From Candidatus Woesearchaeota archaeon (GTDB lineage: Archaea; Nanobdellota; Nanobdellia; Pacearchaeales; GW2011-AR1), in contig CAYIOA010000001.1 of the NCBI GenBank assembly GCA_964364885.1, forward strand, positions 1 through 56,592: a stretch of 56,592 nucleotides of DNA, in the 5' to 3' direction. The notes beneath the pieces were generated by a model, which searched no databases, was not told the DNA's origin, and was given only the letters and a program-made list of their open reading frames with translations. Made by a program: the position numbers and the translations under genes. How positions within the stretch are numbered: the first letter of the stretch is position 1; each line of letters begins with the position of its first letter. Below, piece after piece: positions 5,587-54,632 of this stretch.

Positions 5587-5770
5587 AATCAAAAAGTCCT
5601 TGTGCATTACCGCACACTAAAGTGTGCGGTTTGTTGGACTCATCAAAGTCCATAGGACTTTGAGTGCCGTCAAGAATCCGACTTTGGAGGATTCTTGAGG
5701 TTTGGATGTCTAAAGTTGCATTCGTCTGCGGACTTTAGTCCGCAGTTTTCCGCTCAGCAATCTTGACATA
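5587..5770 (+). repeat. Modular nested-hairpin repeat, copy A (long, four-hairpin form)
   Basis: Shares the 5' end AATCAAAAAGTCCTTG, the hairpins CCGCACAC-TAAA-GTGTGCGG and CTGCGGAC-TTTA-GTCCGCAG, and the 3' end CTTGACATAAA with copies at 11159, 41409 and 54462. Has two extra hairpins: CAAAGTCC-ATA-GGACTTTG and CAAGAATCC-(9 nt)-GGATTCTTG. Confidence 0.8.
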
Positions 5771-5807
5771 AACTAAACTTTATTAACTCCCTTATTCTTC
5801 ATTAAAA

Positions 5808-7109: not shown

Positions 7110-7128
7110 CACAAGTTAGTTCTAGAAT

Positions 7129-7218
7129 ATCCTCGTGGTTGCTGGAACTCCTAGAAACCCGCTGGAGGTTTGTATCCTCGTGGTTGCTGGAACTCCTAGA
7201 AACCCGCTGGAGGTTTGT
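7129..7218. repeat. Perfect 2 x 45-bp tandem duplication (ATCCTCGTGGTTGCTGGAACTCCTAGAAACCCGCTGGAGGTTTGT)
   Basis: Units 7129-7173 and 7174-7218 are identical base for base. The repeat ends 2 nt before the ATG at 7221. Confidence 0.97.
7209..7214 (+). promoter_or_regulatory. Shine-Dalgarno-like GGAGGT, 6 nt upstream of the ATG at 7221 (duplicate copy at 7164-7169)
   Basis: GGAGGT followed by TTGTAG then ATG. The same hexamer recurs in the upstream repeat unit. Confidence 0.5.
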
Positions 7219-11158: not shown

Positions 11159-11272
11159 ATCACAAAGTCCTTGAGTTTTACCGCACCTTAAAAGGTGCGG
11201 TTTGTTTGGACTTTGGGAGGACCGGGAGAAATCGACAGCAACTAACTCCAATCTAAAGATTGGAGATTTCTC
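11159..11272 (+). repeat. Modular nested-hairpin repeat, copy B
   Basis: AATCACAAAGTCCTTG...CCGCACC-TTAAAA-GGTGCGG-TTTGTTTGGACTTTGGGA, then GAGAAAT...CTCCAATC-TAAA-GATTGGAG-ATTTCTC. Ends 12 nt from the tRNA-Asn 3' end. Confidence 0.75.
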
Positions 11273-11284
11273 ACGTGTATTAAA

Positions 11285-11357
11285 CGTCTCGGAGAGGACT
11301 CGAACCTCTGACCCCATGGTTAACAGCCATGTGCTCTGCCAGCTGAGCTACCGAGAC
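11285..11357 (-). tRNA. tRNA-Asn (anticodon GTT), no encoded CCA
   Basis: The reverse complement folds as a cloverleaf. Acceptor GTCTCGG/CCGAGAC, D stem GCTC/GAGC, anticodon stem CATGG/CCATG with loop CTGTTAA, T stem AGAGG/CCTCT with loop TTCGAGT, discriminator G. Confidence 0.93.
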
Positions 11358-24603: not shown

Positions 24604-25077
24604 TTAAGCTGTTATCTTTTCAGCTATTGTTCCAGTTGATGTTAGCACAACCGTACTACTTGGTTTGGTATAAGTTATAGTTATATCGCCCTTATAGTTG
24701 TTTCCAGTTGTTAAAGCGCTTGCGCAACCAACTGTAAACGCTTGAGCTGTTCCTACCGAAATACCAGTCGTTATTACACCAGTTGTGCAATCAATATCTG
24801 GAGCAGTGCCGTCAATATTTATGCCAGTAACAGTATAAACTTCCCCTCCATTATTCTGTAATTCAAGTATAGCACCGGAACTTCCAGCTCCTGTATCAGC
24901 CTGAACATTCCAAGCATTCATATAAAAAGGCGGAGTTACAACAGCAGATCCAGAAACATACTTGCCAGGACTAAATACTCCAAAATAAGCCAAAACTCCA
25001 ATAGCAATTACCGCCGCAAGTATAGCCCAGCCGTAAGTCATCAAGAACTCCATAGCTGCCTGTCCTTTCTTTTGCAT
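24604..25077 (-). CDS. Type IV pilin-like protein with a class III signal peptide
   Basis: MQKKG|QAAMEFLMTYGWAILAAVIAIGVLAYF (Q at +1, E at +5). I chose the ATG at 25077; the ORF track extends to 25104. Confidence 0.75.
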   Translation of the reverse strand: MQKKGQAAMEFLMTYGWAILAAVIAIGVLAYFGVFSPGKYVSGSAVVTPPFYMNAWNVQADTGAGSSGAILELQNNGGEVYTVTGINIDGTAPDIDCTTGVITTGISVGTAQAFTVGCASALTTGNNYKGDITITYTKPSSTVVLTSTGTIAEKITA

Positions 25078-30823: not shown

Positions 30824-31207
30824 ATGAATCAAGATAAGATATTAAACAACAAGCTCATCAATGAACTAAAGAAAGATAAAAGAATCATAGCTGTGCTTTT
30901 ATTCGGCTCGCGTGCAAGAAACGAACAATATAGAGACACTGATATCTGCCTCGTTCTCGACAAAAAATACTCAAATTTAGAAATGTCAAAGATAGTATTA
31001 AAATATTCATCCGAATTGACAGCTAAGCACGATATCCAGGTATTCCAGCAGCTTCCTCTCTACATAAGGCAGAGAATTCTTAAAGAGGGAAAAATACTTT
31101 TATGTATTAACGAACCTGCTCTCTATGACATAGCCTTTGCAACAATAAAAGAATTTGAATATTATAAAAAAATATATTATACATATCTTGAGGCAATGCA
31201 AAAATGA
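30824..31207 (+). CDS. mntA: MNT-type nucleotidyltransferase antitoxin
   Basis: LFGSRARNEQYRDTDICLVLD (GS...DxD polymerase-beta-type NT motif). 4-nt overlap with the HepT gene. Confidence 0.8.
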   Translation: MNQDKILNNKLINELKKDKRIIAVLLFGSRARNEQYRDTDICLVLDKKYSNLEMSKIVLKYSSELTAKHDIQVFQQLPLYIRQRILKEGKILLCINEPALYDIAFATIKEFEYYKKIYYTYLEAMQK

Positions 31208-31638
31208 GAAAAAGCTCAATAGATAAGGAAAAAATTCTTTCTAAGATAGATGAATTAGATGGTTACTTGGAAGAGTTGGAGCAAATTAAGCCCGCTGACT
31301 TTGATGAATACAAAAATTCAATAGAAAAGAAAAGAGCTGTTGAAAGATTGCTACAAATAGCGATAGAAACCGTTATAGATATTTCTAACATCATAGTCTC
31401 TGGTCTTAAACTCGGAATACCATACGATGAAGATTCTCTTTTAGACAAACTGGAAGAAAAAAATGTCATTTCAAAAGAAATAAAAAATATTATGAAGGAA
31501 ATGAAGGGCTTTCGCAATGTTCTAGTCCACAAATACGCAGAAGTCAAAGATGAAATTGTATTCGAAAATCTCAATAAACTTGACGATTTTGATAAATTCA
31601 AGGAAGAAATTCTTTCATTTCTTAAGAAACATTCGTAA
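31204..31638 (+). CDS. hepT: HepT (DUF86/HEPN) toxin
   Basis: Rx4HxY motif in FRNVLVHKYAEV near the C-terminus. 144 aa. Confidence 0.85.
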   Translation: MRKSSIDKEKILSKIDELDGYLEELEQIKPADFDEYKNSIEKKRAVERLLQIAIETVIDISNIIVSGLKLGIPYDEDSLLDKLEEKNVISKEIKNIMKEMKGFRNVLVHKYAEVKDEIVFENLNKLDDFDKFKEEILSFLKKHS

Positions 31639-31642
31639 AAGC

Positions 31643-34600
31643 CTAAACCTTCTCTTCATTTCTCCGTCGCGCAAGAATCCAACTAGCAACAATAATTAAA
31701 ACAACACCAATAGAAATAAATATCACAGTCAGTATTATAGTTACTAATTTATTTTGCTCTTCATCTTGCACAGAAGCAGAAACCCTGCCTCTATTTCCCT
31801 TAGACGTGCTTTTAAAAACCTCTGAGCCAGGACCACTTGCCAAACTCTCTGAACTGCCCACTAAACCTTCTGAACTACTCCCTGAACCTAAATTGCTATT
31901 TGAAGAGTCACCGCTATTCAAAGAACTAATACCACCTAAACTAAGAATGCCTGCCGAACATAGCTCCATAACATGAAGGTTGCCAGAAAATTCGGCATCC
32001 CACGAGTTCCATACAATACGGCTGCCTTGCACGCCGATATTAGAATTAAAATTAGGATATCCTTTGTCTACTTCTAATACTCTGCTGTCATCACTCGTGC
32101 CAGCTATGCCGTCAGCACCCAAGTAATAAAGAAGAATACGTCCATATTCCTGCCAGACAATATATGTTCCGGATATTTCAGGCTCAACGCCAAAAGACAA
32201 ACCACCATACATTCCAGAATCATCTCCTCCGTTATTCTCAAACAATCCATTTGCTCCAAGTCCATATAAAAATATCTCTGGGAGGTATTTCAAATTTCGC
32301 CAGTCTTCCCATACAATCACATTTCCGTCAATAGAAGGATTCTCCTGTCCCTGCGGATTATTCGTTATTCTATCTTCCTGTCCACTAACTATATCCCTCA
32401 TGTATATCTCCCAATTGCCATCTCTCCCATCCTGCCAAACAACTTTAGTATCATAAATATCAGGATTCCATTGGCTTTGCTGATTAATCACAAATGGAAC
32501 TTCTGTATTGGTAGAAAAATCATAAAGATAAATATCCCAATTGCCGTTTCTTTTATCTGCCCAAACAATACTATCGTCATAAATAGACAAATGATTCTTA
32601 TCACTGCCAGTATTAGTTAATTGTGTTGGACCTAAGTCGTCATTTCCATTCTCAAATAATCCATTTACTCCATTATCATAATAAAACACTTCGTAACTCG
32701 GTCCTACAGGACCAAGCCAGACAATTAAATCATCATAAAAGACAAGCTCCCCAACATCAACATATCCGCTAACATCAAACTCATAATGAATATCATCAAA
32801 AGACTTATACAATCCATCAAGTCCTAATTCATGTAAAACTATTTTCTCCTGATTGCTCAAATGATTGTATTCTTTCCATAGAATCTTCGTGTCATACACA
32901 TCACCAAGAGTTCTACTACGCTCAATCCATATAACTGCTTTCTTACTTCCATCATTTGTGTTATGATAAGACCTATCAAGGAACACATCAATCCCGTGCA
33001 CATTCTGCCAAACACCTTGCTGAAGAAGAACAATATCAACAATTGCTGGGCTTGTTACAGAAACACTTGTTACTTTTACACTAGCACTGCTTCCTGTTAT
33101 AACGTCTAAGAGTTCAAAAGTATGCTCCTCTCCGTTATACAAAAACTTATGCGAGGACTTTGGAGAGCTTCCTCCGACTATCAAATCAAATGTCTTCGCG
33201 CCTGATAACTTAATCTCACTCCCGATTTGTCCAAACTGGCAAGCCTGTGAATTCGGCCCCCCGTAGCAATAATTTGAATAACTCTCTCCTCTGTCAATCA
33301 CAGCTACACCAGCATTGGCACAATTCCACCAAGGTAAATACGGTCCGGTATCACCTGATTCATGCACATAAACGCTCCCAGGATAAATACCCTTGCACGC
33401 ATCAAGCGCAGTTTGATAGCACATAAAAATAGGAAACTCGTTGCCGTCACTTTTAATATCAACTTCTTTATACACGTTCATAGAATTGTCAAACTGATTT
33501 CCAGGAAGATTATCATATATCACGCCTAATAAACTGCCCGTGCATGCATTCCCTGTGCATCCATAAGGACATTGATATAATGTTGCGCCAGGAGCCACAC
33601 CAAAGCACGACTTCTCATTAAGCAAAGTATTATCAGCAACCCACTGGCTATTAGTGTCATAACTGCAAATATCACTTGCCCATCCCTCCCTAATCAATAT
33701 AACCTCATTTCCAGAATTACCTGCTCCAATAAACTTAATACCCGAAACATAAACATTGTAATTCCAATCAATAGGATCAAATAATGTAAAAGAGCCAAGC
33801 CAAACTGTTTGAGTAACGCCGTTCATAGTCAAGATTGCCTCATCATCTGAGATAACTTGTAAGCTATATCCTTGATAAACTCCCTCCTGCAAAACCTCCC
33901 CTCTTCCTCCTTTAAAAGAAACAGAGAAAGCCACATAATTATTTCCTCCGTCATAATCCCGGCATATCTGCGCTTCAATAGAAACACATGAATGCAGCAA
34001 AAGCACTGCACTTAACGATGTTGCTGTTTCATCAGCTTCAAGCAAATAAACTTCAATACCGCCTGAAAACACTTTCGCACCATTTTCCGGAATATCACGC
34101 ACTTCCGACCGACCAATATTATCAGTCATTTTTATCGTCGCTGATGTATCAGACGCAGAAACCAGCTCAATCTCGTACAAATCAACACTATCAACTAAAA
34201 TCTGTCTGACAAAATCCTTGTTTGTATCCAAACTAATTTTCACCGCCCCATTAAGAACAAGTATATCATCATCTGAATCTGCTCCGATACTATAATCACT
34301 ATCTAAAAGAGTAAGAAGCGTGCCATAATCAAAAGCAGAAGTGGAAAGCGGCAGTGCTGGAGTAAAAGCAGTCTTATAAGTATAAAACGGTTCTCCAACA
34401 GGGTCTGTAGAAATTTCCAAAATAGTTTCTGGCTCCATGCCAAAAACTGGAGATTTATAAGTCATATCATAACTCCCATAACTCTTAAATGTTATTGACT
34501 GTCCGTAATTATATGAATTATTGCCAGAAGAATCTCTTACAACACCCGAAGCAAGTAAATAAGGTAATTCGCGCTCTCCTATAATAATAGAACCAGAAAC

Positions 34601-37600
34601 ACCAACATTCAGCACAGCGCGGATAATTCCCCCAGTCGTATCTTCATCAGCATCTTCAACTTGAACAATCAACCCAGAAATAATATCGCTCTGTCCTTCA
34701 TGAACAATTCTTGTATCGATCAATCCAGTTTGACTACGCACTTCAATCGTTGCAGTTGTATCACTAGCAGAAACAAGAGTTAAAGTATATTCCACTCCGC
34801 TAATAAAAACTTTTCTCACTGAATTGCCAAAAGTATTATCAAGATAAACAGTTTCAAGTGGAGATTTCTCTCTATGAAAAGGAACTAAAAATGAAAAGAA
34901 TTCGGACTGCTCTCCTCCCTCAACTGTCAAGCGACCATATTGCTGTTTTAATGGAACATTTATGTTTACATTCGATGCCCAAGAATAATTCGTTAGTGTT
35001 ACCGAGCTTCCAAACGAAGTTATTTGTTTATAATAATATCTGTTACTTGATGAAGATGCAAGAGCTTCCCCGCCAGAAGAAAATACAGGCGTTGGAGTTA
35101 AACCTGATAATGTATAAACAGAAGGAACACAAATTGCATTTCCCTCCTCTTCACCAAACACAGGAGGCTCAAGAATAAGAACAGCAGGACCGTGCGCGCT
35201 GTCAAATATACACGGCTGTCCATAAACATAAACACGGTCAAGCAATCCTACGTTTCCAGAACTCCAGCGCACTCCATAATCAATCTTCCCTACAAAAGTG
35301 CTCGTTGAAGCTCCGGCATTATATATAAAAGATGTTCCTTGTAAATAATCATCCACAACAAATCTCCCAGGCACTTGATAAATAATATTTTTATCTACGC
35401 GAGTCTCACTAAGAAACGCGACCTTGGCTCCGCGTTCTGAAGTAAGTATTGGAAATAATCTCATTTCTGGTTGTGCATCGTGAGCTTCAACCCACCCAGA
35501 CTGTGCAAATCCTAAATTGCCCAGATTAATTAAAACACTGCCCTCAACTAACAGCTGTGCGCTAAAGCTCTGTGTCAAGCTATCAAATGATGATTGTATA
35601 ACTCTTATTCTCAAACCATTTACAGCTTCTGTTGTTCCTAAAGCAATGTTGCGCGCCATCGTCGTGGTTGAATCACTTACTCGAACAATAGCACTCGTAG
35701 AACTCGCGCTTTCAATCTTAATAGTATAAATCTGCCCGTCTAAAGTTACATCCCAAGATAGAGAGCCATCTCCGACACCTGCATCCTTTCCATAAGCTAA
35801 TGAATATGTCTCTGCCCCAATAACCAAACTCCCAACTCCCTGTGAGCTTATCGTTGCAGAATAAACATTTCCAGTCAATACATCTCTGAACTCAACAATA
35901 TCACTATTAAATCCAGAATCTATATCCGCCACTCTTTCAACCTCAAACAACCATCCCTGCTCATTCTTTAAACTTGATAGCAAAATTAATTCCTCCTCCC
36001 ACGCACGCTCTCCTTCATACACATGAATAGGGTCATAATTTCTTGCTAAATCAGCCCCGATAATCTTCTGATTCTCATCCTTGCGTGGAGAAGCATATAA
36101 AATCGCCTGATATGGTGTATCAAACACAATACTATCAAAAGACATTTCGCTTGATTGCCCGTCGCCGTATACCTGAATACTATCACTGCCAAAATACCAC
36201 GGAGGAGAAAATGTAAAGTGCAGCGACGCACTGCCTTTTTCAAATACTCTGTCAGTATATGTTTGAGACTTAGTTAAATAAGATGAGGTGTTATCTGCCG
36301 CAGCGTACGAAACACTCATTGAATCCATGCCTGCTCCAGGTATTCCCTGGTTGTCAACAGAAGTTCCGCGCACAAGATTACCCTGAATACCTTTTTGCAC
36401 AACAGAATCATCGTCAAATTTCAGCATAGAACGCACAGAAGAAACACATAACGATTGCTCTACAAAACACTGAGACGAACACCCGTCTCCGCCCCGCGCC
36501 CCGCATTGTGAGCCATCAGTGCAAACTCCATTTAAAGTGCAGTCACTTCCATCCCCACACTGTCGTCCATCATCACAATCTTCTATGCCCTCAATAAGAC
36601 TATCTCCACATAAACTACAAGAGCGTATATCAACAGAATCCTGCGTAACACCAACAATCTCCATATCCTTCCCTAAATAATGAATCTTCAGAGGATTTTG
36701 CGCACTTGTCTGTCTCAAATCAAACGCTCCATTAAAAGCATAATATAAATCTGTAGAAATAGGCTGAACATCAACTATAGCTCCGACAATCGCCAAGGGC
36801 AAAGTTACTCCTGTTCCAACTTCAGGCGAAATTTTTCCAAAAATTAGCTCCTCTGAAGCAGAGTCACTTATACCATTAAAGCTTAAAAATTCTGAAAATC
36901 CTGCAATAGACAAACCAAATCCAAACAAATTATCAGATAACGGCTTTCCAACTGGCAATTGGTGTTGAGTTTGCGCGCCATTCAAAGTCAAAAGAACATT
37001 CGCCAAAACCTGGTCTCCAGGAATATCTATCAAAACTCTATCCTGAAAACTATTAGTCGCCTGATTCCCGATTTTAATTCCGTATGTTGTCATAACGCCA
37101 GAAGTCGTCCCTTTCTGAACCCTTCCCTGATTAGCAACCTCTGCTCCGCTGATCTCTATTTCCGCAGCCTCTGGAATTTGCGGCTGATTGCCAAGTCCTG
37201 CAATCTTTCCGTTTAAACTATCAAATAAAAATTTCATACTGATAATCTCTTGCGTTAACAACTCCGGAGTATCTCCTTTCGTTTCAATAAGCAAATCAAT
37301 AATATTATTGCTCCCTGAATCTCTCACCAGCTTTATGACTGCATTATTTCCAGTTGTTTGTAAATGCTCAACATGGAAAATAGAAACTGGCTGTTGTGTG
37401 CTATCAGGAACAGAAACTTCACCCAAGTATTGAAGAACTCCTAAAATTTCTCCGTAAATATCTGCTTTTAAGATACTCCCGACAATTTTTGTCTCAAGTA
37501 AAATCGCGCTTGTTCTTTGTCCGTTATAGCCTTGATTAATATCCCATCCCGCGTCATCAATAACAAATATCTCTCCATTGGATTTATCTTTAATCTCAAT

Positions 37601-39544
37601 TAATTCGCGCTCCTCAGGAAGCACCAACAAATTGCCGGAGCCGACTGTCTGGCCATTACAAGAACTATCAACTGTAAAATGATATAAGTTTGAATACTGG
37701 GAAAGAATTCCGCTCGGAATAGTCCACCTGATTAACTCTTCCTTCGGCCCAACTTTCATCTGAACCCTTCCGTTTGTGCCGAATGGTGTGACTATCTGTC
37801 CGAAATTATCAAACATTCTTACATTTAAATCAACCCCCGTACATGAGCCATACTTAGTCATGCTCAATATTACTGACTTCCCTTCAGATGAAACAATTAA
37901 AGGATTAACATCACTAGAATCAATGCCGTTGCTCCAATAAGCAGTTTGAAACCCGCAAATACCGCCCCTATCAAAAATCTCATTCTCACAAAAAGTTGGA
38001 GATAGCTCATCAACCCTCTCACAATTTGACTCAATGCTAAAGCAGTCGCACAACAAGCCAATTCCGCCAGCTGGCTCGCGCAGTTTCGGATTCGCATCAG
38101 AGCATTCATCAAGTCTTTGTATAAAAACATCATCCGCACTTTGTCTTCTATCCAAGTTCAAATCACACAACTCTCCCCTGCCAATGGTAGAATCATAACA
38201 ACCAGGATTAATAGAAGCATCTACCGGTCCATTTTTATTATAATTGCAATATGAATAAATATAATCACAATTCATACCGCACCCCAATGCGCTGTTAAGT
38301 CCGAATGTAGACTCGGCAGGTCCTGCGTTCGGAAAATCAGAGCATGTTAATCCTTGGGAGAATACATCATCATTAGGATTCTCGCTGGGCTCATATAAAC
38401 CAGTTGCAAAATTTTTATTTATAGAAAATCCATTTCCATTTAAACCCTTGTCGCAAATTTCCATGCCGTCTATAATTCCATTCCCGCACTGGCTTGTTCC
38501 TCCATTATCCTGGCACTGGCACTGCACACATTCCCAGCCCTGTCCCATCAAAGAACACTGTGTTGCATCATTCAAGCATCCATCAAAACAAATTCCCCGC
38601 GAACACACCTGATTAAAGGCACAGTCATTATGCCAATAGCACTCCCCGCAATACCCGTCATAACTGCATACTTCATTAAAATTACACTGAGAATCAGAAG
38701 TGCATCTGTCAGGAATATCACAAACTCCCCCTGCGCCAGCTATATCTGAAGAGGAGACAAGAATAGTTGTTCTGCTCTGAATATTTCCCGGTCTAAGATT
38801 ACCCTGAACCAAAGACTTGCCAATACTAACCGGCGCGTAATCGCTAGAAGGAACACTCAATCCATGCAAACACGCAGACGCATAATCATCAGGAAAATCA
38901 AGACACTCCCCTATCTGCAAACTATTACTAATAACATTGGATATTCCGATAAACGGTCCTTGAGGATCAGCATCAGAATCAACAATTTGCGTCGGCCCAA
39001 CTTGGTCTAAATTTCCAAGCTCCCATATCCATTCTGGGTTATTAGGGTCCTGCCCTATGAAAGGATCTCTATCCCTATAAGTTCTTATCGTGCACTGAGC
39101 ACCGCCAGATGAAGCAACACACGCCCCGTCCACACATCCATTATCGCACTTAATCCGCGTCTCCATAATTACCCCTTGATCACACCACTGCTCATGAACA
39201 TAATCAATATAACTTCCGTCTCTATTTCTTACCTGAGAGCAATAATCTTCATCGCTCTCCCCATACTTCACATACGTAGTAGACTTCGTATAAATTCCAT
39301 TATTTCCATCAGGATCAACACATCCGTAACCATCATCAATCACTCCAGAGCCAACACACTGAGCAAAATTCAGATAATCATTATAATCAATATCTCCGTC
39401 GTTATCAAAATCAGATGAAGTTCCAGTCTGTCCAAGAGCGCTATTAATAATAAATATCCCTGCCAGCAAGACAAAAATTCCAAATAAAAGTCCAACTCTC
39501 CAAATTTTTCTCTTCTCTATTTTTATCTCCTTTTTTCTCTTCAT
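31643..39544 (-). CDS. Giant (~2,633 aa) multidomain cell-surface protein
   Basis: Uninterrupted 7.9-kb ORF with a Sec-type signal or anchor (WRVGLLFGIFVLLAGIFIINSALG). Dockerin-like DFDNDGDIDYNDY. Cys-rich repeats CGNGIIDGMEICD and CGDSLIEGIEDCDDG. Four SASDT-type modules (e.g. YTLTLVSASDTTATIEV). C-terminal PD40-like repeats (NGNWDIYLYD, DGNWEIYMRD). Ser/Gly linker and C-terminal TM anchor followed by RRRNEEKV. I prefer the ATG at 39544; the ORF-track start at 39565 is a TTG. Confidence 0.9.
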   Translation of the reverse strand: MKRKKEIKIEKRKIWRVGLLFGIFVLLAGIFIINSALGQTGTSSDFDNDGDIDYNDYLNFAQCVGSGVIDDGYGCVDPDGNNGIYTKSTTYVKYGESDEDYCSQVRNRDGSYIDYVHEQWCDQGVIMETRIKCDNGCVDGACVASSGGAQCTIRTYRDRDPFIGQDPNNPEWIWELGNLDQVGPTQIVDSDADPQGPFIGISNVISNSLQIGECLDFPDDYASACLHGLSVPSSDYAPVSIGKSLVQGNLRPGNIQSRTTILVSSSDIAGAGGVCDIPDRCTSDSQCNFNEVCSYDGYCGECYWHNDCAFNQVCSRGICFDGCLNDATQCSLMGQGWECVQCQCQDNGGTSQCGNGIIDGMEICDKGLNGNGFSINKNFATGLYEPSENPNDDVFSQGLTCSDFPNAGPAESTFGLNSALGCGMNCDYIYSYCNYNKNGPVDASINPGCYDSTIGRGELCDLNLDRRQSADDVFIQRLDECSDANPKLREPAGGIGLLCDCFSIESNCERVDELSPTFCENEIFDRGGICGFQTAYWSNGIDSSDVNPLIVSSEGKSVILSMTKYGSCTGVDLNVRMFDNFGQIVTPFGTNGRVQMKVGPKEELIRWTIPSGILSQYSNLYHFTVDSSCNGQTVGSGNLLVLPEERELIEIKDKSNGEIFVIDDAGWDINQGYNGQRTSAILLETKIVGSILKADIYGEILGVLQYLGEVSVPDSTQQPVSIFHVEHLQTTGNNAVIKLVRDSGSNNIIDLLIETKGDTPELLTQEIISMKFLFDSLNGKIAGLGNQPQIPEAAEIEISGAEVANQGRVQKGTTSGVMTTYGIKIGNQATNSFQDRVLIDIPGDQVLANVLLTLNGAQTQHQLPVGKPLSDNLFGFGLSIAGFSEFLSFNGISDSASEELIFGKISPEVGTGVTLPLAIVGAIVDVQPISTDLYYAFNGAFDLRQTSAQNPLKIHYLGKDMEIVGVTQDSVDIRSCSLCGDSLIEGIEDCDDGRQCGDGSDCTLNGVCTDGSQCGARGGDGCSSQCFVEQSLCVSSVRSMLKFDDDSVVQKGIQGNLVRGTSVDNQGIPGAGMDSMSVSYAAADNTSSYLTKSQTYTDRVFEKGSASLHFTFSPPWYFGSDSIQVYGDGQSSEMSFDSIVFDTPYQAILYASPRKDENQKIIGADLARNYDPIHVYEGERAWEEELILLSSLKNEQGWLFEVERVADIDSGFNSDIVEFRDVLTGNVYSATISSQGVGSLVIGAETYSLAYGKDAGVGDGSLSWDVTLDGQIYTIKIESASSTSAIVRVSDSTTTMARNIALGTTEAVNGLRIRVIQSSFDSLTQSFSAQLLVEGSVLINLGNLGFAQSGWVEAHDAQPEMRLFPILTSERGAKVAFLSETRVDKNIIYQVPGRFVVDDYLQGTSFIYNAGASTSTFVGKIDYGVRWSSGNVGLLDRVYVYGQPCIFDSAHGPAVLILEPPVFGEEEGNAICVPSVYTLSGLTPTPVFSSGGEALASSSSNRYYYKQITSFGSSVTLTNYSWASNVNINVPLKQQYGRLTVEGGEQSEFFSFLVPFHREKSPLETVYLDNTFGNSVRKVFISGVEYTLTLVSASDTTATIEVRSQTGLIDTRIVHEGQSDIISGLIVQVEDADEDTTGGIIRAVLNVGVSGSIIIGERELPYLLASGVVRDSSGNNSYNYGQSITFKSYGSYDMTYKSPVFGMEPETILEISTDPVGEPFYTYKTAFTPALPLSTSAFDYGTLLTLLDSDYSIGADSDDDILVLNGAVKISLDTNKDFVRQILVDSVDLYEIELVSASDTSATIKMTDNIGRSEVRDIPENGAKVFSGGIEVYLLEADETATSLSAVLLLHSCVSIEAQICRDYDGGNNYVAFSVSFKGGRGEVLQEGVYQGYSLQVISDDEAILTMNGVTQTVWLGSFTLFDPIDWNYNVYVSGIKFIGAGNSGNEVILIREGWASDICSYDTNSQWVADNTLLNEKSCFGVAPGATLYQCPYGCTGNACTGSLLGVIYDNLPGNQFDNSMNVYKEVDIKSDGNEFPIFMCYQTALDACKGIYPGSVYVHESGDTGPYLPWWNCANAGVAVIDRGESYSNYCYGGPNSQACQFGQIGSEIKLSGAKTFDLIVGGSSPKSSHKFLYNGEEHTFELLDVITGSSASVKVTSVSVTSPAIVDIVLLQQGVWQNVHGIDVFLDRSYHNTNDGSKKAVIWIERSRTLGDVYDTKILWKEYNHLSNQEKIVLHELGLDGLYKSFDDIHYEFDVSGYVDVGELVFYDDLIVWLGPVGPSYEVFYYDNGVNGLFENGNDDLGPTQLTNTGSDKNHLSIYDDSIVWADKRNGNWDIYLYDFSTNTEVPFVINQQSQWNPDIYDTKVVWQDGRDGNWEIYMRDIVSGQEDRITNNPQGQENPSIDGNVIVWEDWRNLKYLPEIFLYGLGANGLFENNGGDDSGMYGGLSFGVEPEISGTYIVWQEYGRILLYYLGADGIAGTSDDSRVLEVDKGYPNFNSNIGVQGSRIVWNSWDAEFSGNLHVMELCSAGILSLGGISSLNSGDSSNSNLGSGSSSEGLVGSSESLASGPGSEVFKSTSKGNRGRVSASVQDEEQNKLVTIILTVIFISIGVVLIIVASWILARRRNEEKV

Positions 39545-39548
39545 TTTT

Positions 39549-40451
39549 TCATATCTCAATATCAAACTTTGGATAGCTCTTTCTCACTCCAGCGCCATTA
39601 ATCGCAGTAATAGTGACATGTGCCAGCCCATCATCATTCAAATTTCCTAAGTTATACTCCCACTTTCCGCTTCCAGAATTATAAACTGCATTAGCAATCT
39701 TATCAGCAATCTTCGGCTTCCCAAATCCCACAAAAGCGAGCTCAACGCCTGAAATGCCCCTCGCATCACTAACGCTGGTTTCAATAAGAGAATTTGTCGT
39801 AGCTGGAATATAATCGCTGAAAGTTGAAACATCTTTCCCATCAATTAAAATATTTGTAAACACTGGTTCTGACGCCGGCTCAACTCTCACTGATAAACTC
39901 TTTCTCACAACTTTTTCAGCTACATTCAATCCAGGCACATTCACTAATCCAGAAAGATCTTCCTTAGCTTCAATTGTAAATGTATAACTTCCAACGCTTC
40001 CAGCAGGAGAAGCCCAGGTTAACATTCCCTGATTATCTATTTGAACATTATACGGATTAGGATTATTAACATCACAATCAACAGTGATAACTCCTCCAAT
40101 AACGGCTCTCGTGCAATAAATCTTATAGTTCAACGGAAAACCCTCTGGATCACTAACTCCAAGAGGGAAATTCAGGCTTCCGCCGTCAGAAATAATCTGT
40201 CCTGTCCATCGCGGAACCAAAGGATCCTGATTCTTCAGCGCATACTCCTGCCAGAATATTGTTTCATCACTGCTCCCGACAATTCCGTTTGAATCTAAAT
40301 CAGCATTAACGCTGCATTGTCCTGCCGGAGAGAAAGAAATAATTTCAAGAAGTTCAGGTTTCAGAGAAAAAAAAGCAAGTAAAACAATAATAGCAATCAC
40401 AACACCAAAACGTAAAGAATCATTCAATACAATAACCCTCTTCTTCCTCAT
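39549..40451 (-). CDS. Secreted or anchored Ig-like-domain protein (300 aa) sharing its C-terminal module with the 1,226-aa protein
   Basis: N-terminal anchor FGVVIAIIVLLAFF and dockerin-like DLDSNGIVGSSDE. The C-terminal ~100 aa align with residues near the C-terminus of ORF 46457-50137. Confidence 0.7.
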   Translation of the reverse strand: MRKKRVIVLNDSLRFGVVIAIIVLLAFFSLKPELLEIISFSPAGQCSVNADLDSNGIVGSSDETIFWQEYALKNQDPLVPRWTGQIISDGGSLNFPLGVSDPEGFPLNYKIYCTRAVIGGVITVDCDVNNPNPYNVQIDNQGMLTWASPAGSVGSYTFTIEAKEDLSGLVNVPGLNVAEKVVRKSLSVRVEPASEPVFTNILIDGKDVSTFSDYIPATTNSLIETSVSDARGISGVELAFVGFGKPKIADKIANAVYNSGSGKWEYNLGNLNDDGLAHVTITAINGAGVRKSYPKFDIEI

Positions 40452-40481: not shown

Positions 40482-41393
40482 TTAACCAAAAAATTGTGAG
40501 AAATATTTCAAGAGAAATATCCTTGAAAAAAAGAAGACAGCCAAGCTGACTAAAATTAAAGGAACCATATATACAAATCCATCTCTCTCTTTTCCTCTGC
40601 TTACCACTCCTAAAACTAAAGAAGCAAGAACATCAGTCATAACAATAAAAAAAGCTGAGAAATAAAATATAAAATCAACAGAAACATTTACTTTTGTCAG
40701 GGAAAATGGAAGATTTATATTCGCCTGCTCAACAGGAATATCAGACAGCAAATTAGTCATAACCTCAACAAGAACTGAAGAAAGCCCGAAAAGAACAGGA
40801 GCCCCGATGGCAACAGCAAAAAAAATGAAAATAACATACATCAAAACATTTGAAGCAGCTCTTTTTCTCACATAAATTCTCTCTCTCATATTATAGGAAG
40901 TCTCTTCCAGCAGAACTGACAGATTCCCCCCGGAAACTATTCCAGAAGTTATCAGCTTCATAATCCTGCTGATTTCATCAGATTTTATTCTGGCAGCCAT
41001 ATCATTTAACGCCCGCCCTATCTCTTTCCCGGTCGCAATATCCTTTCCCAATCCAAGTATCTCCTTGTCAAGCGGAGCAAACTCTTTCCTTGAGCTGTAC
41101 AAAAGCGCCTTGTCAATAGTCATGCCGGCACGGAGATTAGAAGCCATCAAAGAAATAAAATCAGGAAAAGCATCCTCCATCTTTTTAATATCAGAGTACT
41201 TCTTAAGGCGCCCCTTGACAAAAAAATAACCCAAAAGCAGAACAAACAAGAAAACAAATGAAATTGTTGCTCCATTAGCATTTTTAGTAAGTGCATAAAT
41301 AATTCCTCCCAATAAAACAGCAATTATCAAGCTAATAAAAAATTGGACAGCGTAGTTTTTATCTTCATGAGCTTCATTATTATTTCCGTTCAT
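40482..41393 (-). CDS. Type IV pilus platform protein, T2SS-F family (TadC/EpdK-like half)
   Basis: FPDFISLMASNLRAGMTIDKAL and multiple TM helices. Start is ambiguous between the ATG at 41393 (MNGNNNE) and the ATG at 41534. The 41534 start would translate repeat copy C as a 47-aa extension. Confidence 0.72.
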   Translation of the reverse strand: MNGNNNEAHEDKNYAVQFFISLIIAVLLGGIIYALTKNANGATISFVFLFVLLLGYFFVKGRLKKYSDIKKMEDAFPDFISLMASNLRAGMTIDKALLYSSRKEFAPLDKEILGLGKDIATGKEIGRALNDMAARIKSDEISRIMKLITSGIVSGGNLSVLLEETSYNMRERIYVRKRAASNVLMYVIFIFFAVAIGAPVLFGLSSVLVEVMTNLLSDIPVEQANINLPFSLTKVNVSVDFIFYFSAFFIVMTDVLASLVLGVVSRGKERDGFVYMVPLILVSLAVFFFSRIFLLKYFSQFFG

Positions 41394-41408
41394 TTTATTC
41401 TTCTTAAA

Positions 41409-41515
41409 ATCAAAAAGTCCTTGTATTTTGCCGAAGACTGAAGTCCGCAGTTTGTTTGGATTCATCAAAGATTCTCCTCGCACTTCAGTGCGTGTTTTGT
41501 CAGGAGTCTTGGCAT
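41409..41515 (+). repeat. Modular nested-hairpin repeat, copy C (partly degenerate), between or within the platform genes
   Basis: AATCAAAAAGTCCTTGTATTTTGCCGAAGACTGAAGTCCGCAGTTTGTTTGGATTCATCAAAG...CGCAC-TTCA-GTGCG...CTTGGCATTAAA. Both termini match copies A and D. Confidence 0.7.
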
Positions 41516-41535
41516 TAAATTTTTTCAGCATCATT

Positions 41536-45866: not shown

Positions 45867-46448
45867 ATGATAGCTAATATACTTGACAAAAATCTTGCAC
45901 AAATAACTGCTTACTTTCTTATTAGCCCAGGTAGCAGGCATACAAGAAAAGAAATTAAGGAACAAACAGAACTGAACAATATTCCTCTTGATGTAACGTT
46001 AACAAAATTACAATCCCTGAATATATTAAAAAAAGAAAAAAACCTGTTTTCTCTTAACTTTGAGTCAGATGAAATAGCAGTATTTTTAAATGCTATTCAA
46101 AAAGAATATAAAAAATTCAACGTGCCTTATAAAATATTCATGGTGCTTCTAGACATAACTGAAAGTTTATCAAAGGTAAAACACATAAATTCTGTAACTC
46201 TCTTCGGGAGCTATGCAAAACTGATTTATTCAGAAAACTCCGATATTGATATAGCGATAATCTTTTCAAACGGAAAAAAAGAGCAAAAGACTCAAGAGAA
46301 AAAGATAGACAAAATATTAAAGAAATTTGGAGATAAATACAAAAAAGTTATTGAGCCCCGCTATTTCACTGAAAGAGAAATAAAAGATAATAAAACTAAG
46401 GATTTTTTAATTAAAGACATTCTAAAAAACGGTAAAGTGATTTTGTAA
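45867..46448 (+). CDS. wHTH plus nucleotidyltransferase-domain protein
   Basis: LFGSYAKLIYSENSDIDIAIIF (GS...DxD) in the C-terminal half. The N-terminal half looks like a winged helix. Confidence 0.65.
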   Translation: MIANILDKNLAQITAYFLISPGSRHTRKEIKEQTELNNIPLDVTLTKLQSLNILKKEKNLFSLNFESDEIAVFLNAIQKEYKKFNVPYKIFMVLLDITESLSKVKHINSVTLFGSYAKLIYSENSDIDIAIIFSNGKKEQKTQEKKIDKILKKFGDKYKKVIEPRYFTEREIKDNKTKDFLIKDILKNGKVIL

Positions 46449-46456
46449 AGTAACTC

Positions 46457-49400
46457 CTAAATTCCAAACACCCTCTTCATCCATCTCACAATAATACTTT
46501 CTTTAGGAGGCGAAAGATAGGCATCATCAATTTCAATATCAAACTCCGTAAAAGAAGCAGAAACTCCTGCAGTATTATAAGCTCTAACACTAACATGAGC
46601 CAATCCATCATCATTTAATCCTGTTAAGTTATACTCCCACTTCCCGCTTCCAGAGTTATAGACTGCATTAACAATCTTATCGCCAATCTTCGGATGTCCA
46701 AATCCTTTCAATTCCAGTTCAACTTTATCAATCCCTCGTGCATCACTAACATTCACTTCAATAACTGAATCAGAACCAATAATATTTTCCACATTAGAAA
46801 CATCCCTGCCATCAATCTGAACACTGTTAATTATTCCAGCAATATTGTTCTGAGCTCCTAAATCTAAAGAAGTAGTATTGCCTCCGCCCCCTCCACCGCC
46901 TCCAGAGCTTCCGCCTCCGCAAGACAGTCTTGCATTGTCCGCCCAGACACATTCATTTCTTGTAGCAAAAGTATTCTTAAAGCCTGTATTAGATTCCGAG
47001 TTATCACACGAAAAGTCCATACTCAGACTACCACAAACCAAGTTGCTATCAAAATTGTTATTAGAACTAGAGAAAAGTACAACTCCCTCCTCGTTATTTA
47101 CAATATTATTATTCCTAATGCTATTTTGAGAGCTCTGAACAATATTAAGCCCTCTTTTATTTGAATCCAATATGTTGTTCTCAACTAAATTATTGTCACT
47201 ATAAATTCCCAAAGCTATACCATTTAGTCCGCTATTATCTACCCTGTTATTAGAAATTATATTTCCAACACCGCGATTAATATAAATCCCATATTCCACA
47301 CTCTTATCTACAAGATTATCGGAAATTATTGAATCAGAAACAACAGTTAAACTAATTCCTGTACCAAAGTTAAAAATCTTTAAATTCTCTATTTTAAGCT
47401 CCTTCATTCCGAGAGAGTTAACGCCTATATCTCCAGCACTGTCATCACCGATAATTGAAAAGCCATTTCCATCTAAAGTAATATTGTTTGCTGTTATAAC
47501 AAAGCAATCCGAGGTTGTTGTTATGTCCTTAGCAAGAATATACTTCGTGTTTGGTTTGTCAAGAGTCTGACAGCCATTCAATAAAACACCCTCAAGGCAT
47601 GCTCCATCCACACAACCATTATCACATTTGATTACATTTTCCATTATTACTCCATTATCACAATATTGCTCGTGTATATAATCAACATAAACCCCACCTC
47701 TTCCTCCAGTCCTCTGACAATAGTCCTCGTCGCTCTCTCCATAAGGCACATACGTAGTAGACTTCGTATAAATTCCGTCAGGTCCGTCAGGATCAATACA
47801 GCCATACCCGTCATCTACAATCTTTGGAACAGTATAATTAACAATTAAAGTCGGCTTAAGGGAAGGGTCTTTAGACCCCATAAAGAATAGCTGAAGTTCT
47901 GTATATTCTCCATTATTAGGAGTAGTATAGAGGTCATACCCCCCACGTAATCCAAATACAGTATAGCCATTATTATTAATAGTAGCCAGCCCATCAGAAT
48001 TCAATGGAAAAACTATATTTACATTAGATGCAAGTTGCCCACTTATATCAAATCTATCACTCAATTCCATAGGATTATCTACTGAACTAAACTGATCAAA
48101 ATCTTCAGTAGTTAAAAATGGGGGATTTTTTAAAGTTGTAGGCACAATAGTAATAAAATCATCTGAATTTGGATGTGTGTTAATATAAAAATCAGAAGAT
48201 TTTGAAAGACTCAATTCTGCAGAATCAATTATGGCAGAATCTGGCAATGAACTTGTATAAAATGGAATTGAGATTCTATAAAGAAGAGAAAAAGAGGTTG
48301 ATGGGTCTGATTTTAGCAATAATAAATAGTCAGAAATTGGGGGTTGGGGGCTTATTCCATCTCCATTTGGACTTTTTCTCAGATCATCCCATGACCCTAC
48401 CGAGATCATGGATGATCTATATACTCCTGTTCCTTCATTATCTGCTGTGAATATAGCAGTACAAGAATTATTTCCATTATAAACATCTCCAGGAGCACAT
48501 ATAGGACCCGTACATTGTGATACATCAAAATCACAATGTAACATACATCCTAAATTGCCATATCTAAAGCCCAGAGTCTCACAAGTATGACCATTTAGAT
48601 TCTGACCATCACAATCTTCTCCAAGATCAATGATGCCATCCCCACAATCTATAGACCCCACATACAATTCAATACTCGTATCATTTAGATTTAACGTAGT
48701 CACCATAATATCATTATTTGAGTCATAAAAAGTTTCGCCTTGTCTAAGAACAACATCAAGGCTATTAGCAGTATTACGAGAGCTATCTAATAACTGTGTA
48801 TCCCCACTCCCAATAAAAGAATCAATATGTAACATTGCTCCATCATAAACATTTCCTCCATAATTAAAATTATATATATCAAAACCAATAGGTCTGCGAT
48901 ATTCAAAATAATAATTATAATTCGAAGTAGGAATTTTTAATCCTTTAACCCCTCCTGTATTAGTTTCAAGAGGTTCAATAAAATAACTTCCACGACTATT
49001 TACTTCTAAAATTTGTTGAGGATCTAACCAACCAATAGTTTCCTTATGGATTATATTAAAATAACCTTTATTATTGGACAAACCCATAATATCAAATGGA
49101 TCTCCGTAATAAACTGTAAAACATTTGTTAATTAGATCAATAGTTGAAGCTCCACAATTAAGAAAATTGGCATGCTCGATACCAAAATTATGACCTAATT
49201 CATGAGCAGTAACCCCGAAATTCCAACCCGAACTATAAACCCCATTTAACCATGATACAGCTAAAGAAGCAGGACCATCAGATGTTTGATGGGTATATTC
49301 GCCAACACTTCCCGCTCCACCAAAACTACATAAATTAGCGCCCCACACGATTACTAATTTATCAACAGTCAACCAATTAATGTCCCTGCTTATAAGAGGA

Positions 49401-50137
49401 TCATTTAGTATCTTATCCGTAATAGCAGATATATCACATTTTGCATTTAATGATAAAGTATAATATGGATATACTGTAGGAACAAGCCAAGATTTGCCAT
49501 ATGAATTCTCTCGATAATACTGACTAACTCCAGCCATAATGGAGTATGCTTCGGTTTCACTTAAAAAATCAGTCTGATCATCCAAAAACTTAATACGAAC
49601 ATAAGCTACTTTCTGCTCCCCCAAATTTGGATTCGCTGCTACTCCTGCTAATATTTGAGGTTGATATAAAATTTCATAATTATCTACAGCAAATTCACTT
49701 TGATTATTAACTTCTAAAGTCCTACCTCTAATCTCTATTCGTTCACCAGAGATCAATCTCGGATCAATAGAAAAATATACCCTACTACGCTTCCCGTCTC
49801 CTTCTCTAAAAAAATACTGATTTTCGCTCCTGGCATTTTCAAAATCATCAACATGAACAACCTCCAAATCTCCAGTTTTTACTGTGGATTTCCCATGAGT
49901 AGAAACATAAGCCATTCTATCCATAACAGATTGCTTGTTAAACAATTGCACTCCAGGTATCTTTTCAGAAGCACCTCTCTGTAGAGTATCGCCATTAAAG
50001 AACCTCTGTTCAGGGCTTTGTGCAACATCCTCAAATCCTAAAAAGAGTATAACACTCAAACCTATCAAAAATAATAGGGCAATAACAAATAAAAAGAATA
50101 TTCTATTTTTACGCCAGACAACCTTCCTCTTTTTCAT
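46457..50137 (-). CDS. 1,226-aa secreted or anchored protein with zincin metalloprotease, Cys-rich repeat, right-handed beta-helix (PbH1/NosD-like) and Ig-like domains
   Basis: N-terminal anchor IFFLFVIALLFLIGLSVILFLGF. HELGHNFGIEH (HExxHxxGxxH). CGDGIIDLGEDCDG. Parallel beta-helix repeats (ISDNLVDKSVEYGIYIN..ISNNRVDNSGLNGIAL..VENNILDSNKRGLNIV). Gly run GGGSSGGGGGGGGN. Confidence 0.88.
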   Translation of the reverse strand: MKKRKVVWRKNRIFFLFVIALLFLIGLSVILFLGFEDVAQSPEQRFFNGDTLQRGASEKIPGVQLFNKQSVMDRMAYVSTHGKSTVKTGDLEVVHVDDFENARSENQYFFREGDGKRSRVYFSIDPRLISGERIEIRGRTLEVNNQSEFAVDNYEILYQPQILAGVAANPNLGEQKVAYVRIKFLDDQTDFLSETEAYSIMAGVSQYYRENSYGKSWLVPTVYPYYTLSLNAKCDISAITDKILNDPLISRDINWLTVDKLVIVWGANLCSFGGAGSVGEYTHQTSDGPASLAVSWLNGVYSSGWNFGVTAHELGHNFGIEHANFLNCGASTIDLINKCFTVYYGDPFDIMGLSNNKGYFNIIHKETIGWLDPQQILEVNSRGSYFIEPLETNTGGVKGLKIPTSNYNYYFEYRRPIGFDIYNFNYGGNVYDGAMLHIDSFIGSGDTQLLDSSRNTANSLDVVLRQGETFYDSNNDIMVTTLNLNDTSIELYVGSIDCGDGIIDLGEDCDGQNLNGHTCETLGFRYGNLGCMLHCDFDVSQCTGPICAPGDVYNGNNSCTAIFTADNEGTGVYRSSMISVGSWDDLRKSPNGDGISPQPPISDYLLLLKSDPSTSFSLLYRISIPFYTSSLPDSAIIDSAELSLSKSSDFYINTHPNSDDFITIVPTTLKNPPFLTTEDFDQFSSVDNPMELSDRFDISGQLASNVNIVFPLNSDGLATINNNGYTVFGLRGGYDLYTTPNNGEYTELQLFFMGSKDPSLKPTLIVNYTVPKIVDDGYGCIDPDGPDGIYTKSTTYVPYGESDEDYCQRTGGRGGVYVDYIHEQYCDNGVIMENVIKCDNGCVDGACLEGVLLNGCQTLDKPNTKYILAKDITTTSDCFVITANNITLDGNGFSIIGDDSAGDIGVNSLGMKELKIENLKIFNFGTGISLTVVSDSIISDNLVDKSVEYGIYINRGVGNIISNNRVDNSGLNGIALGIYSDNNLVENNILDSNKRGLNIVQSSQNSIRNNNIVNNEEGVVLFSSSNNNFDSNLVCGSLSMDFSCDNSESNTGFKNTFATRNECVWADNARLSCGGGSSGGGGGGGGNTTSLDLGAQNNIAGIINSVQIDGRDVSNVENIIGSDSVIEVNVSDARGIDKVELELKGFGHPKIGDKIVNAVYNSGSGKWEYNLTGLNDDGLAHVSVRAYNTAGVSASFTEFDIEIDDAYLSPPKESIIVRWMKRVFGI

Positions 50138-54461: not shown

Positions 54462-54584
54462 ATCAAAAAGTCCTTGTTGCTTACCGCACACTAAAGTGTG
54501 CGGTTTGTTTGGACTTTGGGATGTCCAAAGTTGCATTCATCTGCGGACTAAAGTCCGCAGTTTTCTGCTCAGCAACTTTGGCAT
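54462..54584 (+). repeat. Modular nested-hairpin repeat, copy D (canonical two-module form)
   Basis: ATCAAAAAGTCCTTG..CCGCACAC-TAAA-GTGTGCGG-TTTGTTT-GGACTTTGGGA, then CCAAAGTTGC-ATTCAT-CTGCGGAC-TAAA-GTCCGCAG-TTTTCTGCTCA-GCAACTTTGG-CAT. Confidence 0.8.
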
Positions 54585-54632
54585 AAAAAAGATTAACAGC
54601 GAATACACCCGCCATCTCGGTCGAAAAACCTC

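Follow-up and report, generated by a model that had tools for sequence, protein, structure and literature searches.

Nested-hairpin repeats of a Woesearchaeota contig as probable non-autonomous IS200/IS605-type elements

Short repeats built of nested hairpins occur at four places in a 56,592-nt stretch of DNA from a Candidatus Woesearchaeota archaeon (contig CAYIOA010000001.1, assembly GCA_964364885.1; the whole stretch is called the window here). What are these repeats, and how did they come to lie where they are found? The original prediction, made from the sequence alone, had placed a MITE-like element (miniature inverted-repeat transposable element), a structured RNA family and a portable terminator side by side. 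We conclude that the repeats are probably non-autonomous elements of the IS200/IS605 type, namely palindrome-associated transposable elements (PATEs), and we infer for them a single-strand mechanism, the active strand and the identity of the transposase. This reading would explain a conspicuous and recurrent feature of Woese/Pacearchaeota-type genomes, at which assemblies tend to break.

Insertion sites and guide-target pairing

Each repeat consists of two modules, and we refer to their inner hairpins, as read on the plus strand of the window, as hairpin 1 and hairpin 2. Two comparisons of filled with empty sites revealed a precise insertion of 114-115 nt. In Archaeon BMS3Abin17 an uninterrupted paralogue reads ...GCAATTGTTGGA|ATAATATTAATTAGTG..., and the disrupted gene reads ...GCAATTGTTGGA + (ATCAAAAAG...CCTTGGC) + ATAATATTAATTAGTG...; the empty junction ...GTTGGA|ATAATATT... 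thus corresponds to the filled ...GTTGGA[115 nt]ATAATATT, with flanks that are 98% identical over 107 nt. The other comparison concerns a fifth copy (copy E), which lies in the same orientation as the four window copies about 530 nt past the right end of the window (L113:791-851, minus strand). Compared with eight orthologues (52-63% identity), copy E adds exactly 38 codons to a SpoIIM-like gene, behind its codon 9. The orthologues align as M-K-x-x-x-L-(S/N)-(I/V/T)-(K/R)-T-Q-F, the codons of copy E fall between N9 and I48 (I10 without the insert), and the junction reads ...TTGAAT + (ATCAAAAAG...CTTGAC) + ATAAGA....

At both empty sites ATAA is host sequence, so that the trailing ATAA (ATTA in copies B and C), which had been counted as part of the element, has to be taken out of it. 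A search for target-site duplications had also been proposed; none longer than 2 nt was found at the two empty sites. The junctions are ambiguous by 2 nt (AT) only, an ambiguity to be expected when AT closes both the target and the right end. An AT-N-A tetranucleotide directly follows the 3' end of the core in nearly all parsed copies, 80 of which were tabulated. Terminal inverted repeats are absent: in the 18 sharp-ended copies of BMS3Abin17, ATCAAAAAGTCCTTG... and ...GAATCCTTGGC are not reverse complements.

The host tetranucleotide is related to a base inside the element. The fourth base after the foot of hairpin 2 (TTTN) is Watson-Crick complementary to the third host base (AT-N'-A), and all four states occur. 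In the tally, which was made with our own parser, the N-N' counts are T-A 55, G-C 5, A-T 4 and C-G 2, and hence 66 of the 80 copies lie on the diagonal. Where N is a base other than T, the pair is of the Watson-Crick type in 11 of 13 copies, or in 14 of 17 when hand-read copies are added. The states vary even within a subfamily: copies of the '...CTGT' end type show T-A, G-C and A-T, those of the '...TGGAC' end type T-A and C-G. The tetranucleotide comes from the host, and every copy therefore counts as an independent insertion. The other end obeys the same rule, for hairpin 1 is followed by TTTG and the first four bases of the element are ATCA; GGTTTGT is unchanged across 15 diverse aligned copies. 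In this respect the family is a natural experiment on the rule known from IS608, with T, G, A or C guide subfamilies beside the complementary host base.

On the minus strand, the presumed top strand of the window copies, the layout becomes [T-N-A-T]^, about 16 nt, a guide, hairpin 2', ..., a second guide, hairpin 1', about 18 nt and TGAT^. Written out, this is [T-N-A-T host]^G(C/T)CAAG... guide(g1 g2 A A g5)-inner hairpin 2 ... guide(ACAAA)-inner hairpin 1-~18 nt-TGAT^, with a left end T-N-A-T^G(C/T)CAAG...hairpin and a right end hairpin...CTTTTTGAT^. The insertion sequence (IS) IS608 inserts 3' of TTAC; its left cleavage site is external, 19 nt 5' of the foot of the left hairpin, its right cleavage site lies within the IS, 3' of the right hairpin, and both are recognised by pairing with guides immediately 5' of the hairpin feet, the left guide being AAAG for TTAC (PMC3201880). 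Judged from its sequence, the geometry of our element on the minus strand matches this arrangement. As in IS608 and ISDra2, the target stands 5' of the left end and outside the element, at about 20 nt from the foot of the left hairpin (20 nt in BMS3Abin17-type copies, 19 nt in IS608), the right cleavage site would be internal and 3' of the right hairpin, and the guides lie directly 5' of the hairpin feet. Recognition of the cleavage sites would occur through base pairing with the guides. In contrast to IS608 and ISDra2, the element is non-coding, the distance between the hairpin and its right cleavage site is about 22 nt instead of 10 nt, its guide seems to comprise five bases with pairing at positions 2 and 5, and its subfamilies naturally take all four bases at one guide position.

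Anatomy and spread of the family

In module 1, ATC(A)AAAAGTCC and GGACTTTT(G)GAT pair to form the outer stem, within which lies a GC-rich inner hairpin of 8 bp with a TAAA or TTTA loop, followed by TTTGT. In module 2, (C/T)CAAG-N4-5 pairs with N4-5-CTTG(G/A) around the second inner hairpin, after which TTTTC is usual. From none to five extra cassette hairpins with CAAG...CTTG-like feet can stand between the modules, and the elements range from 105 to 280 nt in length. Both ends thus carry subterminal imperfect palindromes on one strand (8-bp inner hairpins, TAAA/TTTA loops). The longest variant, of about 280 nt (L143:7380-7665, the same as L191:6426-6707), has five added cassette hairpins inside the outer stem of module 1.

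The features of the four window copies are as follows; the strand, given for whole copies, is that of the presumed top strand.

5588..5767, minus: copy A, long form, 180 nt; the plus strand reads ATCAAAAAG...CTTGAC; model match at 5588-5648, fold z -6.8 and -8.0
5610..5629: inner hairpin 1 of copy A, CCGCACAC-TAAA-GTGTGCGG; by sequence and helix covariation, the right-end subterminal palindrome of the top strand
5630..5633: TTTG after hairpin 1 of copy A; by the pairing rule, the presumed guide for the element's terminal ATCA (TGAT on the top strand)
5644..5662: optional cassette hairpin of copy A, CAAAGTCC-ATA-GGACTTTG, in long-form copies only; the same cassette occurs in L168, L133, L138 and L142
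5671..5697: optional cassette hairpin of copy A, CAAGAATCC-N9-GGATTCTTG; the same cassette occurs in other long-form copies
5726..5745: inner hairpin 2 of copy A, CTGCGGAC-TTTA-GTCCGCAG, the left-end subterminal palindrome of the top strand; loop inverted relative to copy D
5746..5749: TTTT after hairpin 2 of copy A, the presumed guide; according to the tally its fourth base T pairs with the A of AT-A-A
5768..5771: ATAA beside copy A, host target outside the element (TTAT on the minus strand); empty sites keep ATAA, and the third base covaries with the guide base
11159..11278, minus: copy B, a separate subfamily; module 1 (model match) followed by a 3' module of its own
11181..11200: inner hairpin 1 of copy B, CCGCACCT-TAAA-AGGTGCGG, with two compensatory changes relative to A and D
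11246..11265: inner hairpin 2 of copy B, CTCCAATC-TAAA-GATTGGAG
41409..41513, minus: copy C, 105 nt, TTTGTC/ATCA subfamily, with relatives at L185:1383, L128, L186 and L173
41514..41517: ATTA beside copy C, target tetranucleotide
54462..54582, minus: copy D, canonical two-module form, 121 nt, between two minus-strand genes; fold z -7.0 and -7.5
54484..54503: inner hairpin 1 of copy D, CCGCACAC-TAAA-GTGTGCGG
54541..54560: inner hairpin 2 of copy D, CTGCGGAC-TAAA-GTCCGCAG; the guide TTTT then lies at 54561-54564
54583..54586: ATAA beside copy D, host target tetranucleotide

A repeat search joined the stretches starting at 5588, 11159, 41409 and 54462 into one family, as predicted with four copies in the same reading orientation, and it grouped the 3' modules of A and D, which are 88% identical. 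The common 5' end was recovered as well: A, C and D carry the 15-mer ATCAAAAAGTCCTTG unchanged, and B departs from it at one position. Likewise, copy A equals copy D plus an insert with two additional perfect hairpins (5644-5662 and 5671-5697). Other parts of the description hold for some copies only. The supposedly shared central box GGTTTGTTTGGACTTTGGGA is exact in B and D but not in A and C. The 3' modules of A and D are alike, but copy B lacks the CTTGGCATAA end and runs in its own module to ...CACGTGT at 11278, not to 11272. A covariance model built on module 1 (R1) matched copies D, B and A with 82.7, 90.4 and 67.6 bits (E 1e-14 to 1e-21) and copy C as a partial match only, with 26.6 bits; mismatch patterns and the model yielded no copies in the window beyond these four. 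The folds of A, B and D far exceed those of dinucleotide shuffles on both strands (z -4.8 to -8.0), and copy C folds no better than shuffles (z -0.2 and -1.0). Copy C is an old and degenerate copy, and its ATTA has probably mutated from ATCA. Copy B is followed by ATTA at 11279-11282 and recurs in other contexts, identical in L189 and with one base different in L136 over the shared length; it lies 6 nt from the 3' end of a tRNA-Asn gene (11285-11357, minus strand). Short contigs of other assemblies stop inside copy D.

The stems covary strongly. In 86 distinct module-1 sequences 93.7% of the cells are paired; shuffles reach 80%, and slid partners 38-45%. Double changes occupy 234 cells and one-sided changes about 23, and none of 500 shuffles matched the observed values. 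In otherwise near-identical copies the loops switch to their reverse complement (TAAA/TTTA, TGAA/TTCA) while the stems stay intact, for example between window positions 5734-5737 and 54549-54552. We read this flipping as an event at the level of DNA, a mark of template switching within DNA hairpins.

A model-based genome-wide scan had been suggested to look for further copies. Our survey covered about 1.4 Mb of fetched loci, including contigs from a metagenome scan, to which the covariance model was applied; with the wider scan it revealed 117 distinct copies in DPANN genomes and metagenomes. Among the GTDB pattern-scan matches listed, true copies are confined to DPANN archaea, with Archaeon BMS3Abin17, several Candidatus Woesearchaeota metagenome-assembled genomes (MAGs), one Nanoarchaeota MAG and one Pacearchaeota MAG as hosts. 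Many pattern matches in Streptococcus were discarded as a chance match in a conserved Streptococcus locus, and the viral contigs searched contained no copies. The fetched pieces of BMS3Abin17 hold 18 sharp-ended copies, nine of which are identical 119-mers (core plus ATAA). One locus of this archaeon (L102:3400-4900) comprises three tandem paralogues of a secreted/membrane protein, one of them split by an element, with the common N-terminus M..N.FSNR.L.TFI.I.GIILISVVV.AYSGNVGHTSDQIDEVDPS.

The window is a contig of a DPANN MAG (Nanoarchaeota/Woese-Pacearchaeota type), and its population was sampled from Hainich groundwater (well H51, 0.1-um fraction). Contigs of the same assembly carry 20 further copies at equal coverage (8-11x), which brings the window's population to about 25; judging by coverage and shared subfamilies, these contigs probably belong to the window's organism. 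Even symbiont genomes of about 1 Mb tolerate roughly one element per 10-15 kb, insertions within genes included.

Mode of transposition, transposase and alternative explanations

How would such an element move? A Y1 (HUH) transposase TnpA, supplied in trans, would bind both subterminal hairpins in single-stranded DNA and cut 3' of the target tetranucleotide on the left and 3' of the element's own TGAT on the right. The top strand would leave as a circle and re-insert 3' of a tetranucleotide that pairs with the left-end guide, and nothing would be duplicated. Another guide base would direct the element to another landing tetranucleotide (TTAT, TGAT, TAAT or TCAT). The outer stems and the optional cassette hairpins would be family-specific additions that may keep the cleavage sites near the guides.

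PATEs are defined by the lack of terminal inverted repeats, palindromes near the termini, no target duplication, a length that leaves no room for a transposase and a terminal oligonucleotide serving as the targeting sequence (PMC3119063), and the element fits every point of this definition. With the PATEs of Haloquadratum walsbyi it has in common the absence of terminal inverted repeats and target-site duplications, the near-terminal palindromes, a host targeting 'terminal oligonucleotide' and the non-coding size, and both families comprise homogeneous (near-identical) and heterogeneous subfamilies (PMC3119063). It differs from them in its hosts, which are small-genome DPANN archaea of the Woese/Pacearchaeota type, in hairpins that are nested in a covarying outer stem, in cassette hairpins that give a modular short or long structure, and in that we found no parent IS with the same ends. 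The nested outer stems, the cassette hairpins and the natural four-state series of guides and targets are specific to this family. Of the MITE-like element first proposed, a mobile, multi-copy and non-coding unit too short for a transposase is retained, but one without terminal inverted repeats or target-site duplications that inserts beside a host tetranucleotide.

Two further kinds of bacterial repeats invite comparison. Rickettsia palindromic elements (RPE) are short palindromic repeats of a reduced genome, some of them in frame within genes, and copies C and E likewise lie in frame within genes. However, few copies of our element are in frame and most have stops in all frames, and here the insertion mechanism can be deduced. 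The BOX elements of Streptococcus pneumoniae place internal hairpin modules, in varying number, between end modules that are conserved; the modular build is alike, the sequence and the host are unrelated, and we know of no guide-target rule for BOX elements.

Candidates for the transposase were sought with a TnpA profile derived from solved structures. A Pfam search had found no transposase domain among 62 open reading frames (ORFs) from the window, and the profile gave a single match in the six-frame ORFs of 200 loci, at L037:3783-4256. This locus belongs to a Woesearchaeota MAG rich in hairpin elements. The homologues of the L037 protein, about 300 Y1_Tnp proteins with lengths of 155-157 aa, make up a clade specific to DPANN archaea; most are encoded on contigs of about 1 kb, and in Pacearchaeota and Nanoarchaeota MAGs they are named IS200/IS605 transposase (P0241-P0360 are among the members). 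The catalytic tyrosine is invariant, while the HUH motif is mostly H-V-Q with few HLH/HVH variants (P0288 has HLH); the family points to a DPANN-specific Y1 clade with mostly H-U-Q instead of H-U-H. Since the identical protein P0305 sits in at least five different contexts, its IS of about 0.8 kb is active. The ends of the clade's IS read as follows.

Left end, most copies: 5-mer before the hairpin GAAAT; cleavage T-N-A-A, mostly TTAA
Left end, L206: 5-mer before the hairpin GAAAC; cleavage TTAG
Right end: 5-mer before the hairpin GGAAA; cleavage TCAT
Right end: 5-mer before the hairpin GGAAG; cleavage TCAC

These IS (P0305, P0246, P0288) share with our element the pairing rule, nested hairpins at the ends and GC-rich right-end hairpins with a TTTA loop: CCGCACCC-TTTA-GGGTGCGG and CTCCACAC-TTTA-GTGTGTGAG are much like the element hairpins on the minus strand. 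Genomes and samples of the same kinds contain these IS and the element, and in L037 both lie on the same contig. The IS differ in that they carry a transposase gene, in their termini (TTGAGAAG... and ...GGATGTCAC) and in the target, which is T-N-A-A and not T-N-A-T. The clade was ruled out as the direct parent, as its ends differ from the two modules although the rule is shared. A member of the clade or a close relative would nevertheless be the probable source of the activity that moves the elements in trans. A cluster look-up and look-ups of two contigs did not link the Y1 clade to Hainich samples. At L211:832-1974 two related IS200-type elements stand in tandem, one with an HVH and the other with an HVQ transposase; the second begins 8 nt (ATATTTAA) past the right end of the first, 3' of TTAA.

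The orientation of the copies is in part informative. In all five copies of the window region the presumed top strand is the minus strand, which is G-rich throughout the window and bears most genes. A passage in PMC6006769 describes IS608 and ISDra2 as targeting the lagging-strand template, and the orientation in the window region is as expected from such a preference. Over all loci, neighbouring copies are co-oriented 22:5 (p=0.0015), and the ratio is 18:5 when only pairs separated by more than 400 nt are counted. Orientation showed no association with the GC skew of the flanks (21:20), and a dependence on the local coding strand was rejected.

Several observations weigh against IS200/IS605-type elements. 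Outside the window, orientation relative to locus-level GC skew is 42:30 and not significant. The 2-nt AT ambiguity at both empty sites also fits a 2-bp duplication. Fourteen or fifteen copies are off the pairing rule (of the 14 in the tally, 12 have N = T); most are TTTT guides beside ATCA or ATTA, and some are tandem insertions. Moreover, 36 of the 117 copies are beyond automatic parsing, the tally depends on our own parser, and copies of one subfamily would lose some of their independence if the junction were inherited in any part. Conserved and covarying outer stems (helix 2) are not described for IS608 ends and are left unexplained. A cognate transposase with these ends was found neither in the window nor in the roughly 1.4 Mb of loci, and none of the approximately 117 copies has a gene between its two modules. 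Finally, the Y1 match in L037 has a degenerate HUH motif (DNIQ) and unlike ends, and this transposase may be inactive.

Among the alternatives, a system like that of the repetitive extragenic palindromes (REP) and bacterial interspersed mosaic elements (BIME) is marginally the least unlikely. Here the palindromes would not derive from an IS but would be spread by a single-copy domesticated Y1 enzyme (REP-associated tyrosine transposase, RAYT). A conserved head of the GTAG type is a background feature of REPs. The same enzyme superfamily and the same reliance on hairpins in single-stranded DNA would be implied, copy number is high with mostly intergenic copies, an autonomous parent was not found in the loci searched, and a passage in PMC3333891 likens REPs to the subterminal hairpins of IS200/IS605. 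Yet the element has two distinct ends, a defined target and a guide-target rule, which belong to transposon ends but not to lone REP palindromes. Each unit has two ends and 105-280 nt, and the units are co-oriented, whereas REPs are single short units that often alternate, and the only Y1 clade that we found is multi-copy and mobile, unlike single-copy RAYTs. We consider this origin quite unlikely.

That the repeats are primarily a structured RNA family or a portable terminator or stabiliser, kept for a benefit to neighbouring genes, is quite unlikely. The very stable predicted folds on both strands and the compensatory changes that maintain the stems would suit such a role, as would the T-rich tracts after the inner hairpins on the plus strand, the T5 run that closes the element on the minus strand, and the position of several copies downstream of genes or tRNAs. 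However, a search of Rfam with copy A returned nothing even at E<=1, some copies interrupt a gene or sit within coding sequence, and orientation is unrelated to coding strand or skew. One-sided changes of the G-U type are about ten times rarer than double changes, and the TAAA/TTTA and TGAA/TTCA flips alter an RNA loop but not a DNA palindrome. The T-rich tracts, once taken for terminator tails, include the position that covaries with a host base lying outside the element, a link that no terminator model predicts. At gathering score, Rfam reported only the tRNA-Asn and a marginal IRE_II across the window; the latter (24791-24821, 30.3 bits against a gathering score of 30 bits, E 0.083) is almost certainly a chance match in an archaeon.

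It is very improbable that the repeats are non-autonomous elements of the rolling-circle kind (IS91/Helitron-like, Y2 HUH), inserted without duplication between an A and a T. A Helitron begins with TC, has AT as its insertion site and bears a subterminal hairpin at its 3' end, and given the 2-nt ambiguity our element can be written as TC...GGCA in host A^T. But its 3' end is unlike CTRR, it has two similar hairpins and not one, and the covariation of the host base after AT with an internal base by the hairpin is the recognition mode of IS200/IS605; a Rep/helicase gene was seen in no locus, where no profile search for one was made. The least probable alternative is a classical MITE with terminal inverted repeats moved by a DDE transposase, since despite a typical size, copy number and non-coding nature, and an automated census that lists 105 MITEs per Mb in a Woesearchaeal genome (PMC11602168), the termini ATCAAAAAGTCC... 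and ...CCTTGGC are not mutual inverted repeats, the two empty sites lack a target duplication above 2 nt, and the inverted-repeat-like stems are internal to each module.

Starting from IS200/IS605-type PATEs, one may join the observations into a wider but doubtful picture. The outer stems and cassettes would be functional innovations of a DPANN branch of IS200/IS605, with an outer helix that places the cleavage tetranucleotide beside the guide. The elements would be driven by the HUQ Y1 clade, possibly from another replicon or from the host cell of the episymbiont, and some copies would have been co-opted, as start codons or N-terminal peptides (C, E, L193) or as bidirectional transcript ends.

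Host genes and other observations in the window

Most copies are intergenic, and BMS3Abin17-type copies have stops in all six frames in a consensus reading. Of the 81 parsed copies, nine are spanned by ORFs of at least 100 aa; these ORFs number 10, as copy C has two, and such repeats can mislead gene callers into extending ORFs through them. Copy C contributes 35 codons, in frame on the minus strand, to the second T2SSF (TadC/FlaJ-like) gene (40482-41534), in its 5' part, which encodes the basic N-terminal region. In relatives this gene encodes 344-350 aa and abuts the upstream gene, as in the window. A comparison with an orthologous empty site for copy C was given up, since the N-terminal region of T2SSF is of low complexity in relatives; an in-frame insertion is supported weakly there.

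Close to their 3' end, E-type copies contain an ATG that shares the reading frame of the host gene, as in copy E itself and in L193 before an ABC ATPase gene. Translation may restart at this ATG instead of the original start, and copies may have an incidental effect on transcripts. By eye, a copy at L185:~900-1040 lies near the 3' end of an apparent 16S rRNA gene and another at L053:~840-1040 by the start of an apparent tRNA gene.

The window has a G+C content of about 36%, and its nearest protein relatives are only about 65% identical. It encodes MCM, FtsZ, eIF2-beta, aRF1, TFE and several tRNA synthetases, as well as an archaeal pilus operon of the Tad/FlaIJ type. A perfect tandem duplication of 45 nt, two copies of TATCCTCGTGGTTGCTGGAACTCCTAGAAACCCGCTGGAGGTTTG at 7128-7217, lies between an amidase (GatA-like) gene and a gene of the metallo-beta-lactamase fold. 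It is unrelated to the hairpin family, folds no better than shuffles and is absent from all fetched loci.

A nucleotidyltransferase/HepT toxin-antitoxin pair (MNT-HEPN type) and two further Pol-beta-type nucleotidyltransferase genes are located at 30824-31638, 45867-46448 and 52080-53091. Two minus-strand ORFs are very large, with 2640 aa and 1226 aa (31643-39565 and 46457-50137), and the latter contains reprolysin-like and NosD/beta-helix domains. Stretches in or beside these two ORFs are 74-83% identical to each other (39240-39337 and 47718-47815; 39586-39793 and 46563-46770).

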